The translations under genes and the position numbers were made by a program. A DNA stretch of 64,000 nucleotides from IMG/VR virus record IMGVR_UViG_3300028048_000047, positions 96,001-160,000 of that record, one strand, 5' to 3'. This DNA is from a virus. Taxonomy: Duplodnaviria > Caudoviricetes. Below the pieces are notes generated by a model. It had not been told where the DNA came from and searched no databases. It saw only the letters and a list, made by a program, of their open reading frames with translations. Of the stretch, positions 60,558 to 63,268 are shown piece after piece. Numbering within the stretch: the first letter of the stretch is position 1; the number at the start of each line of letters is the position of its first letter.

Positions 60558-60754
60558 CTGAAAAATATTACTTAGTAGTAGAAATAAGTGGAAGTTTAGC
60601 CAAAATGTACGACAATATAAGTGAAGAAAATATAATGGATGTTAATGAAACCGTAAATAAATTAAACGAACTAACCCAAGAAAATCAAATTCTTAAAACA
60701 GAAAATATCCTATTGAAAAAAGAATTGAAAAAAATGACTGAAAAACATTCCTAA
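60554..60754 (+). CDS. last array cassette, ending in an in-frame empty head (MTEKHS*)
   Basis: ATGACTGAAAAACATTCCTAA at 60734-60754. Confidence 0.7.
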   Translation: MTEKYYLVVEISGSLAKMYDNISEENIMDVNETVNKLNELTQENQILKTENILLKKELKKMTEKHS

Positions 60755-60904
60755 CACTATTAATCAAACATAACCAATATAAATACATTAATAAATAAAA
60801 TATAATACAAAAAAAATAATAATAATATAAAAAAAATAAAAAACAAAAACACAAAAATAAATAAACACATTTAAATAATATCAAAAGAATAAAGTAAAAA
60901 ATAT

Positions 60905-60985: not shown

Positions 60986-61014
60986 TTAAAGGATTTTAAG
61001 GAGGTTTTGAGTTT

Positions 61015-61218
61015 ATGAGTAAGAAAAATTTTAGGAAGAATAAGAAGAATTGTGATAAGTTGTTGTCTAAGAGGGAAATTTCTAAGTTTGAGAGGTTGTG
61101 TAGTAAGGTTGATTGGTGTGATGAGGATAGTGTTTTTGAGTTTGGTGTTGAGTTGGGTAGGTGGTCTGTTAGGTTGAGGGGTTTGGTTTTGGAGAAGAGT
61201 TTGGAGGGTGATGAGTAA
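61015..61218 (+). CDS. hypothetical protein
   Basis: SD AAGGAGG; plausible amino-acid composition. Confidence 0.5.
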   Translation: MSKKNFRKNKKNCDKLLSKREISKFERLCSKVDWCDEDSVFEFGVELGRWSVRLRGLVLEKSLEGDE

Positions 61219-61398
61219 GTGGTTGTTTAGTTGTTTTTGTGGTTGTTTATTTTTGTGTTTTTGTGTTTTGTTTGTTGTTTGGTTGTTGGGTTTGTTGTTT
61301 TTTTTGGGGTTTGTTGGTTTTTTTGTTTTTGTGTTTTGTTTTGGTGTAGGTGTGTTTGTTGTTTTTTGGTGTTTTGTGTGGTGGTATTTAAATGTTTT

Positions 61399-61413
61399 GG
61401 AAAGGTTTATATA
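61399..61413 (+). promoter_or_regulatory. archaeal promoter (GGAAAGG-TTTATATA) for the TFB-like gene
   Basis: BRE-like purines + TATA. Confidence 0.6.
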
Positions 61414-61477
61414 GTATGAGTTTTATATATTATTATATGTTTTTTTTAAATAATTTTGATTTGAGGTGTATTTTTTT

Positions 61478-62188
61478 ATGAGTGATGAGATTAATGATTT
61501 TAAGTTGAGGAAGTTGGATTTGGATGATGTTGATGGTAATGTTAATGTTTTTAATAAGGCTCAATGGTATCGTTTGATGAAGTGGAAGGATAAGGTTGAG
61601 GAGAGTTCTGGTAATCGTAATGTTGATTATGCTTTGGATTTGGTTAATTCTTTTTCTGTTAAGTTGGGTTTGGATGGTGTTGTTAGGCGTAGGATTTATT
61701 CTGTTTATAGTGGTAGTGTTGATGCTGGTGTGTTGACTGGTAGGAGTATTGAGGGTGTTGTTGGTGCTTCTGTGTATGTTGGTCTTCGTTTGGAGGGTGT
61801 TGTTCGTACTGCTGAGGAGGTTTCTGAGGTTTGTAAGGTTTCTTATAAGGATTTGCTTCGTACTTCTAAGTTGATTTGTAAGAAGTTGGGTGTTCGTTTG
61901 CCTTTGTTATCTCCGAAGGATTTTGTTCCTCGTTTTTGTGATAGTTTGGGTATTGTTGATGATGATGTTGTTTTGAAGGCTTATGAGTTGTTGGATGATT
62001 GTGAGGTTGTGGGGTTGTGTAATGGTCCTGCTCCTAATAGTTTGGCGGCTTCTTGTTTGTATTTGGCTTGTCTTGGTTGTGGTGTTCGTAAGACTCAGCG
62101 TGATGTTGGGGAGGTTTGTGGTGTTAGTGAGGTTACTATTAGGAATAATCTTCGTAAGATTCGTAAGACTTTGGAGTTAGATTATTAG
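61478..62188 (+). CDS. tfb: transcription initiation factor TFB/TFIIB homolog lacking the N-terminal Zn ribbon and B-reader
   Basis: KAQWYRLMKW, GRSIEGVVGASVY, SPKDFVPRF, KTQRDVGEVCGVSEVTIRN (two cyclin folds + HTH); SD GAGGTG. Confidence 0.92.
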   Translation: MSDEINDFKLRKLDLDDVDGNVNVFNKAQWYRLMKWKDKVEESSGNRNVDYALDLVNSFSVKLGLDGVVRRRIYSVYSGSVDAGVLTGRSIEGVVGASVYVGLRLEGVVRTAEEVSEVCKVSYKDLLRTSKLICKKLGVRLPLLSPKDFVPRFCDSLGIVDDDVVLKAYELLDDCEVVGLCNGPAPNSLAASCLYLACLGCGVRKTQRDVGEVCGVSEVTIRNNLRKIRKTLELDY

Positions 62189-62259
62189 GAGGGTTGTTTT
62201 TTTAAACTTTTCTATTTTTTTTTATGATTATTATTCTTTTTTTTGTGGGGGATTATAGT

Positions 62260-62919
62260 ATGAAGATGGTTTTTTTTGATACTGAAACTACTGGTTTGGA
62301 TAGTGTTGAGGATAGGATTATTGAGTTGGCTTTTGTGGTTGTTGAGGATGGTGTGGTTGTTAGGAAGTATGATGAGTTTGTTGATGTTGGTGTTTCTTTG
62401 TCTGATGATGTTGTGGATTTGACGGGGATTACTGATGAGTTGTTGTCTGCTGAGGGTGTTAGTGAGAAGTCTGTTGCTGATGATTTGATGGGTTGTTTGG
62501 ATAAGGGTGTTGTTATGATTGCTCATAATTGTCAGTTTGATTTGAATTTTATTTTTCAGTTGTTGGTTAGGTATTATTCTGAGGATGTTGTTCTTGATTT
62601 GTTTGGGGATATGTTTTGGTTGGATACTTTGACTGTGTTTAAGGATAGGAAGGGTTATCCTCATAAGTTGGAGGATATGGTTAGGTATTATGGTATTGAG
62701 TGGGGTAGTTTTCATCGTGCTATTGATGATACTTTGGTTTTGTGTGAGTGTGTTAAGGCTTTGAATCGTGAGAGGAATGATTTGGTGGCTTATTTTAATG
62801 TGTTTGGTTTTAATCCGAAGTGGGGTGTTAGTGGTATTGAGTTTGATTTTATTCGGTATGTACCTCAGTCTTTTAGTAAGAGTATGGTTGGGAAGGATTT
62901 TATTTTGCCTTTGTTATGA
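62260..62919 (+). CDS. DEDDh 3'-5' exonuclease (DnaQ-like)
   Basis: FDTETTGL, AHNCQFD, HRAIDD. Confidence 0.9.
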   Translation: MKMVFFDTETTGLDSVEDRIIELAFVVVEDGVVVRKYDEFVDVGVSLSDDVVDLTGITDELLSAEGVSEKSVADDLMGCLDKGVVMIAHNCQFDLNFIFQLLVRYYSEDVVLDLFGDMFWLDTLTVFKDRKGYPHKLEDMVRYYGIEWGSFHRAIDDTLVLCECVKALNRERNDLVAYFNVFGFNPKWGVSGIEFDFIRYVPQSFSKSMVGKDFILPLL

Positions 62920-62952
62920 ATGTTTTTTATTTATTTTTATATATTGGGGGGG

Positions 62953-63002
62953 GGGTTAATTGTCGACTTTTTGTCGACGGTTGACTCATTATTTTTTTTT
63001 TT
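62953..63002 (+). terminator. 15-bp hairpin (4 G-U pairs) + T-tract
   Basis: GGGTTAATTGTCGAC-TTTTT-GTCGACGGTTGACTC followed by T11. Confidence 0.6.
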
Positions 63003-63268
63003 GATAGGTTGGTAGAGTGGTTTAATGTGGGAGGGGGTTTGTAAAACTCTTTTTCATGAGGTTGATTTTTCCATTTGTCTTTAATTTTTATGTGTTTGTT
63101 TAGTTTTTTTGGTTTTTGTTTGAACGGTTTTTTTGTTTTTGTTGGGGTTTTGTTTTTTGTGGTTGAACATTTTTATAGTGTTGTTTGTTTTTTGTTGAAC
63201 GGTTGTGTTTTACTGTTAGTGTTTTTTTTTAGTTTATTTTTTATTGTGGTGTATGTGGGATAGATATG

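Follow-up and report, generated by a model that had tools for sequence, protein, structure and literature searches.

In the archaeal transcription factor TFB, the zinc ribbon recruits RNA polymerase (RNAP) via the dock, the cleft is where the B-reader and linker operate, and TBP and the BRE are bound by the core (PMC7289017, PMC6212726). For the recombinant core of the M. jannaschii protein (TFBc), TBP/TFBc/promoter complexes form at a 5-10-fold lower concentration than with full-length TFB (PMC2699501). Archaeal viruses are thought to be wholly dependent on the TBP, TFB and RNAP of their hosts, and few repressors have been characterised. TFB genes have been annotated in some rudiviruses and in the Asgard viruses JinchiV1 and PBV300 (PMC13700489; bioRxiv 10.1101/2020.01.16.907410). 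In a literature search that covered methanogen viruses incompletely, we found no published natural core-only viral TFB, no functional study of virus-encoded TFBs, and no description of a TFB in methanogen viruses, of which a prior mention is possible.

The TFB core gene described here lies in a window of 64,000 nucleotides that represents bases 96001-160000 of the 195,936-bp IMG/VR virus record IMGVR_UViG_3300028048_000047 (Duplodnaviria; Caudoviricetes). The record was rated complete by CheckV, and the gene is thus encoded by the element, as a preliminary description had it. The genome has a G+C content of about 25% and carries nearly all of its genes on the + strand. The record carries G+T-rich tandem repeats with a 27-nt unit, AGGTATGGTGGGAGTTATTGGTGCAAT, at its left end (genome 1-2400), outside the window. 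A search of IMG/VR for related loci returned no relatives beyond the virus's own record. DNA near-identical to the region is present in bovine and sheep gut metagenomes from 14 studies (the search for such sequencing runs returned no RNA data set), and the closest cellular relatives of the TFB core protein are the TFBs of Methanobrevibacter and the Methanobacteriaceae (41-42% identity). For these two reasons, the host is most likely a ruminant-gut member of the Methanobacteriales. Such hosts are the main methane producers in ruminants.

Domain architecture of the viral TFB core protein

The gene and its parts are the following, with coordinates given in the window.

61478-62188, + strand: TFB core gene, 236 aa, with a short tail, a B-linker-type helix, two cyclin repeats and a C-terminal HTH, without Zn ribbon and without B-reader
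61556-61600, + strand: linker-type helix, residues 27-41, which holds NKAQWYRLMKWK and shows the highest conservation within the viral family
61616-61888, + strand: cyclin repeat 1, approximately residues 47-137, with the GRSIE and RT..E motifs kept
61913-62173, + strand: cyclin repeat 2, approximately residues 146-232 (Pfam stretch 142-230), including the BRE-reading HTH (R/K)TQRDV..GV(S/T)EVTIRN

The cyclin repeats place the protein in the TFB/TFIIB family, with two matches to PF00382 (TFIIB repeat) at an E-value of 2.1e-33. The C4 zinc ribbon of the family (PF08271) is missing; Pfam gave no match to it in the ORF, nor at an E-value of at most 0.001 anywhere in the whole 195,936-bp virus genome. 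We extracted cellular TFB ORFs from 80 loci and examined 79 of them, with one intein-containing ORF set aside, and all 79 contain the CxxC..CxxC ribbon. In the alignment with these proteins, the viral protein begins past the ribbon (CPECGS..CGLV), the B-reader (GPEWRAF.HEQR) and the B-linker strand (HDKGLST.I). It thus starts C-terminal of the segment that forms the B-reader helix and loop (GPEWRAF / HEQR.KR), and the absence of both ribbon and B-reader noted in the preliminary description is borne out. While the strand motif of the B-linker is gone, the subsequent helix, NKAQWYRLMKWK, is present and invariant in the viral family. As had been described, about 25 residues precede this AQWYRL.KW helix, and residues 26-37 align with NRAQWYRLRKWQ of the Methanobacteriaceae TFB. 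In the viral family alignment, N26, A28, Q29, Y31, R32, L33, K35 and W36 are invariant.

The AF2 model of the protein, built with 17 homologues, has a mean pLDDT of 83.7 and consists of a disordered stretch (residues 1-13), an N-terminal helix (27-41) and then the ten helices of two cyclin folds. It superposes on the core of the P. woesei TFB, 1D3U_B, with a VIA-align Z-score of 26.1 and an rmsd of 2.3 Å over 196 residues, and Foldseek gave TM-scores by target of 0.86-0.90 to TFBc. In a phmmer search of the PDB, constructs of the P. woesei TFB core (1D3U, 1AIS) matched at 1e-30, with query residues 44-233 aligned over chain residues 5-195. When compared with PIC structures, the linker helix superposes on the TFIIB residues immediately N-terminal of cyclin repeat 1 (3K1F_M; model 23-137 versus chain 102-214), and the structural alignment with 8S5N_M extends from 17 to 234 in the model and from 86 to 298 in the chain. 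By the numbering of TFIIB, the superposed TFIIB residues just before cyclin repeat 1 fall in the B-linker region, on which the tentative name B-linker helix is based.

Both cyclin folds and the HTH (KTQRDV..GVSEVTIRN) are therefore retained, as the preliminary description had it. At least 95% of the cellular TFBs also have the HTH residues R204, T206, Q207, G215, V216, V219, T220, I221, R222 and N223. Residues 215-223 correspond to the near-invariant cellular consensus (at least 95%) except for residue 218, a conservative E/D position, and judged by its sequence the HTH appears to be that of a TFB. The viral recognition helix, SEVTIRN within GVSEVTIRN, is nearly identical to TEVTIRN of the host.

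Promoter, conservation and setting of the gene

The gene is part of a compositionally extreme segment of the genome with the following features.

61001-63250 (genome about 156901-159400), no strand assigned: G+T-saturated island, G+T 0.73-0.86 on the + strand, containing the 67-aa ORF, the TFB core gene, the exonuclease gene and two G/T spacers
61015-61218, + strand: 67-aa ORF, the first gene of the island, with a basic N-terminus and the motif WCDEDSVFxFGVELGRWSVRLR, without zinc ribbon
61219-61477, + strand: G+T-rich spacer with about 0% C, bearing the promoter and SD of the TFB core gene
62260-62919, + strand: DnaQ-like DEDDh 3'-5' exonuclease (PF00929, E 1e-22; phrog_192 'DNA polymerase exonuclease subunit', E 1e-35)

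The TFB core gene likely starts at ATG 61478, because the alternative GTG at 61466 falls within the SD (GAGGTG, 61463-61468). Its BRE/TATA promoter, gGAAAgg-TTTATATA, is located at 61399-61413, 65 nt ahead of the ATG, and a second TATA-like box, GTATTTAAATG, is found just 5' of it. The promoter and SD that had been assigned to the gene are thus present, and their layout is kept in six related loci (L003, L006, L007, L008 and L009 among them). No ribbon-coding extension exists in the 260 nt upstream, which are G/T-rich spacer, and none is possible since the promoter and SD sit directly 5' of the gene. An upstream ORF at 61208-61414 with a Cys-rich translation was rejected as low-complexity G/T spacer containing the promoter.

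Independent ruminant-gut assemblies contain near-identical contigs that span the island and in which the TFB core frame is intact. Because these assemblies agree and the homologues have the same N-terminus, the short form of the protein is no artefact. The ruminant contigs match the island at about 99% from 60868 onward and diverge 5' of it (about 60716-60868), so the small-ORF array ahead of the island differs between strains.

The same architecture was found in nineteen homologues of 227-237 aa, all with the conserved ribbon-less N-terminus. A word-index search identified 15 close relatives (228-237 aa, 57-86% identity) and also P0017 (264 aa), which the tree places as a fragment of a cellular Methanobacteriaceae TFB. 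The remoter ribbon-less proteins P0018, P0019 and P0022 (227-235 aa, 40-49% identity) were recovered by an exhaustive HMMER search. No longer homologues were returned by a word-index search restricted to 414-2000 aa, an uninformative range. Among the 150 best representatives, 57 lack the full ribbon pattern and are mostly obvious fragments, while some, such as P0116 (209 aa), look from their sequences like further core-only forms.

In a maximum-likelihood phylogeny, 18 of the ribbon-less proteins form one clade (SH-aLRT 90) with long branches, apart from all cellular TFBs. The position of the clade relative to the Methanobacteriaceae is not settled by the tree, and the amino acid composition is deviant, so that long-branch and compositional effects apply. 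The stem branches of the clade measure 0.75 and 0.65 changes per column, as compared to a median end branch of 0.016 in the tree. A contig of 2.8 kb from a Methanobrevibacter MAG (L029) contains a divergent, full-length, ribbon-bearing TFB on a long branch within the Methanobacteriaceae clade, which may be a second TFB paralogue, perhaps element-borne.

The sampled cellular TFBs have 120 columns with an invariance of at least 95%, and the viral family keeps 44 of these and differs in the other 76. The kept columns include GRS.E, RT..E, P.D..RF, G..P, R.TQ and GVT.VTIRN. In the 17-row alignment of the family, one row of which is the cellular fragment, 45 columns are invariant. In the pairs least affected by compositional bias (L006 versus L095, and this genome with L006 or L095), dN/dS is 0.18-0.43, with 0.18 for L006 versus L095, and the other pairs of L095 with relatives for which dS was estimable gave 0.27-0.43. 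Values for strongly G/T-biased pairs, such as 1.36 for this genome versus L007, were rejected as artefacts of convergent synonymous composition. The constant length of the homologues, the invariant columns and the dN/dS values of 0.18-0.43 indicate that the gene is under selection rather than decaying. It is a functional, conserved viral gene that originated from a euryarchaeal TFB, with its nearest cellular kin in the Methanobacteriaceae.

In the TFB core gene, the exonuclease gene and the 67-aa ORF, G or T occupies 97-99% of third codon positions (A 0.01-0.03, C 0.00), and the four-fold sites of the island genes are 82-100% T. In comparison with the relatives, T takes the place of A at four-fold sites, and G does so at two-fold purine sites. 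The relatives show the bias to different degrees, extreme in L007 and L094, intermediate in L006 and L095, and absent from L009. On either side of the island, the same strand has A+C-rich patches. Damage that an exposed coding strand suffers over a long time (C>T, A>G, G>T), as at an R-loop or an origin, would fit the pattern, while selection against A and C is a conceivable alternative cause. Two adjoining DNA methyltransferase genes (D12-class N6-adenine; N6/N4 type) follow the island at genome 160764-162405, outside the window. The first of them has G-depleted, A/C-rich third positions and is in this respect the mirror image of the island.

The gene order is common to L003-L008, L094 and L095, with the small-ORF array followed by a 67-70-aa ORF, the G/T spacer with the promoter, the TFB core gene and the DnaQ-like exonuclease gene. 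Orthologues of 67-70 aa precede the TFB-like gene in L094, L095, L006, L007 and L008, and the exonuclease gene adjoins it in L003-L007 and L095. A remote orthologue of the 67-aa ORF, a small WxDEDSVW ORF, is located upstream of the remote ribbon-less relative P0022 in L012. The 67-aa protein has no Pfam or PHROG match and could be a partner of the TFB core. Further downstream, after a gap of 2-5 kb, the related viruses encode an 81-aa protein, an HslV-like peptidase (phrog_1040), a 158-160-aa protein and an integrase-like protein.

The right arm of the genome contains about 45 copies of AGAAAC(A/C)TTTATATA, a canonical, near-consensus BRE/TATA. These belong to about 45 near-identical cassettes, AAAT-AGAAAC(A/C)-TTTATATA-CTA..., at genome 168470-195936 (outside the window), each ahead of a small gene. 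The leader of the cassette contains an inverted repeat (TGTGAGTgg..aaACTACTTACA) and then AGGAGATG, and the promoter-leader array is unusually uniform. The preliminary description had proposed that two promoter flavours, CGAAA and TAGTAA, might be read differentially. The data do not support this in the form proposed, since the orthologous promoter of the TFB-like gene itself reads GGAAA, CGAAA, AGTAA, CGTAA or CAAAA depending on the relative, and the recognition helix is nearly that of the host. By their sequences, the promoter variants look like tolerated BRE variants and not like two classes.

Possible modes of action and the 81-aa protein

Instead of activating promoters by itself, the TFB core probably blocks them or re-programmes them. 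The two possibilities raised in the preliminary description, a dominant-negative inhibitor and a factor that receives its ribbon in trans, remain the leading readings of the sequence data. We tentatively prefer the former, and give a probability of about 0.4 to the protein being a promoter-occupying competitor of the host TFB, over its completion in trans. After infection, the TFB core protein would be made from its own canonical BRE/TATA promoter and would bind host TBP on BRE/TATA promoters, like recombinant TFBc. Because a TFB core without ribbon should be unable to dock RNAP by the normal route, it would compete with the host TFB and leave promoters occupied unproductively, in dead-end complexes. 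Host promoters, early viral promoters or both would thereby be shut off or slowed in their timing, unless the polymerase contact comes from another factor. Since TFBc forms its promoter complexes at a lower concentration than full-length TFB, a natural TFBc should compete effectively.

The retained BRE helix and the GRSIE, RT..E and P.D..RF motifs are in favour of the competitor, as is the absence of a TBP gene from the virus genome. However, such a competitor would also block the virus's own near-consensus promoters, unless these are set apart by timing or by another factor. Furthermore, conservation within the family is highest in the linker helix, which a pure TBP/DNA decoy should not need, and the 81-aa protein with its TFB-ribbon-like motif is co-conserved in all six related viruses with enough sequence. 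Taken together, these three observations favour an RNAP-engaging factor that is completed in trans.

Under this less probable alternative, the TFB core would be the positive half of a split, virus-specific initiation factor, with the docking ribbon supplied in trans by the 81-aa protein or another partner. By analogy with a phage sigma factor, the two pieces might direct host RNAP to viral promoters, and the invariance of the linker helix suggests that polymerase contact is still selected. The preliminary description had pointed to the many small Zn-ribbon proteins of the array, but the small CxxC proteins are not TFB-like; the genome contains 12 ORFs with CxxC..CxxC, and none of the 12 resembles the TFB N-terminus. 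The idea of a ribbon in trans has instead gained one candidate outside the window, with a sub-threshold PF08271 match.

Genome 163625-163870 (L093 7625-7870), outside the window: 81-aa protein, followed by the HslV-like peptidase gene

With an HMM of the cellular TFB N-terminus, we searched the six-frame ORFs of the virus and of five related loci in full; no match was significant (best E-value 0.097), and in every locus the best weak matches were orthologous small ORFs 3' of the TFB core gene. These encode the 81-aa protein, a family of 13 members with the motif PSPRCExCxxKCxVLYDSHHDEYFSxNCGLVIxEQ, in which C26, C29, C33, H40, H41 and C49 are invariant. Its sole match among 24,736 Pfam models is PF08271 (E 0.0079), with 16.2 bits as compared to a cut-off of 29, and the same model matches 6 of the 13 members, also below threshold (best E 0.002). 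When the family was compared with hhalign to a 20-sequence profile of the TFB N-terminus (P 7.7e-4, probability 25%), C26, C29, D38, E43, C49, G50 and V52 were paired with seven of the first nine invariant TFB columns, CGLVI among them, and these nine columns make up the zinc-ribbon stretch. AF2 gave a poor model (pLDDT 58, three short strands), and the top-ranked of 350,542 chains in a Foldseek search with this low-confidence model was 1PFT, the TFB ribbon, at a non-significant E-value of 1.4.

All of these similarities are below significance, which counts against the split factor. In the reciprocal search, with the HMM of the 81-aa family against the ORFs of the 80 cellular TFB loci, TFB ORFs made up 17 of the top 40 matches, all with E-values above 1 and not independent, which amounts to noise, and the family profile found no TFB/TFIIB match among the PDB sequences. 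A feature search of the ESM Atlas returned unnamed clusters alone (0.87), and the predicted complex of the TFB core and the 81-aa protein scored 0.01, which is evidence neither way. The Cys at the position of the third zinc ligand is a conserved Ser in the 81-aa family, and a segment resembling the B-reader is present in neither protein. In 6/6 distinct related viruses for which the sequence extends far enough, the 81-aa gene is located 2.3-5.4 kb downstream of the TFB core gene. It does not adjoin that gene and has a different composition, and their co-occurrence is weak evidence because these viruses are syntenic in general.

We consider it about even odds that the 81-aa protein is a TFB-derived ribbon. 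Its co-conservation with the TFB core is new here, and is suggestive rather than proven. The wider proposition, that a clade of large ruminant-gut methanogen viruses encodes TFB as two fast-evolving pieces, a linker-helix core and a degenerate 81-aa ribbon, which would jointly act as a virus-specific initiation factor redirecting host RNA polymerase, is doubtful. If true, the two-piece viral TFB would be an archaeal counterpart of the phage sigma factors.

The motif TTTTTTGGTAAGAGTGTATAATGA occurs at genome 12768, 55691, 70741 and 163596, all outside the window, with the central 13 bases identical in the four copies. It is kept directly 5' of the 81-aa gene in the relatives (L003 13834, L007 4750, L008 4046, L095 7715). 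We rejected it as a TATA box of that gene, since it is too near the start codon. Possible roles include those of an RNA element, of a junction between terminator and start, and of a recombination site.

It is unlikely that the TFB core is instead a promoter-selective modulator that acts with host TFB, TFE or TBP, stabilising TBP on weak viral promoters or sequestering it, or that it has a DNA-architectural role at the island or an origin beside the exonuclease. Such roles would suit the conserved module of 67-aa ORF, TFB core and DnaQ-like exonuclease within the extreme island, the small WxDEDSVW ORF that likewise accompanies P0022, and the alteration of 76/120 near-invariant cellular positions. 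However, the motifs that have been retained are the ordinary ones for binding TBP and the BRE, and cyclin-fold TFB cores have no known role beyond transcription initiation. Finally, the idea that the gene is a TFB captured from the host that has lost its function, or that its start was called wrongly, would agree with the long branch, the strongly skewed amino acid composition and the rare G-ending codons, but is highly improbable given that length and N-terminus are conserved in 19 homologues, that promoter and SD are conserved, that the functional motifs are invariant, that dN/dS is well below 1 where measurable, and that the frame is intact in independent metagenomes.

Comparison with known systems

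The TFB core would thus serve either to shut off transcription at the promoter or as half of an initiation factor that is split and specific to the virus. In both cases, this natural and conserved TFB core, which lacks the half that docks the polymerase, offers a ready-made probe of how archaeal viruses take over transcription and time it. It most resembles the TFB of Methanobrevibacter and other Methanobacteriaceae (PF08271 and two copies of PF00382), with 41-42% identity across the stretch of linker helix and two cyclin repeats, and shares with it the AQWYRL.KW helix and the motifs GRSIE, RT..E, P.DFVPRF and RTQRDV..GVTEVTIRN. However, the viral protein lacks about 90 N-terminal residues, corresponding to the Zn ribbon, the B-reader helix and loop and the B-linker strand, and it is encoded by a virus and evolves much faster.

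In domain content, the protein corresponds to the laboratory truncations TFBc and TFIIBc (P. woesei 1AIS and 1D3U; the M. jannaschii TFBc that has been employed in EMSA). It differs from these in being natural and selected, and in having about 43 extra N-terminal residues that include the linker helix. Like the virus-encoded TFB homologues, it is a TFB-family protein of an archaeal virus, and it matches phrog_20431 at an E-value of 2e-25. The match covers only positions 84-286 of the 293 in the profile, and PHROG 20431 thus has an N-terminal part that is missing from the viral protein.

The TFB3 paralogue of Sulfolobus has kept the ribbon and lost the core, and is a cellular protein induced by DNA damage. 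It is similar to the viral protein in being a naturally truncated TFB; it is no substitute for TFB and works jointly with the canonical machinery (PMC7289017). The truncation is, however, the opposite one, and the analogue of TFB3 would be the 81-aa viral protein rather than the TFB core. A functional analogy may also exist with the viral and host RNAP inhibitors ATV RIP/ORF145 and TFS4, which are reported to shut down host-type transcription during infection (PMC5123050, PMC8448823, PMC5715097). These have unrelated folds and bind RNAP itself, whereas the TFB core would act at the level of the promoter and TBP.
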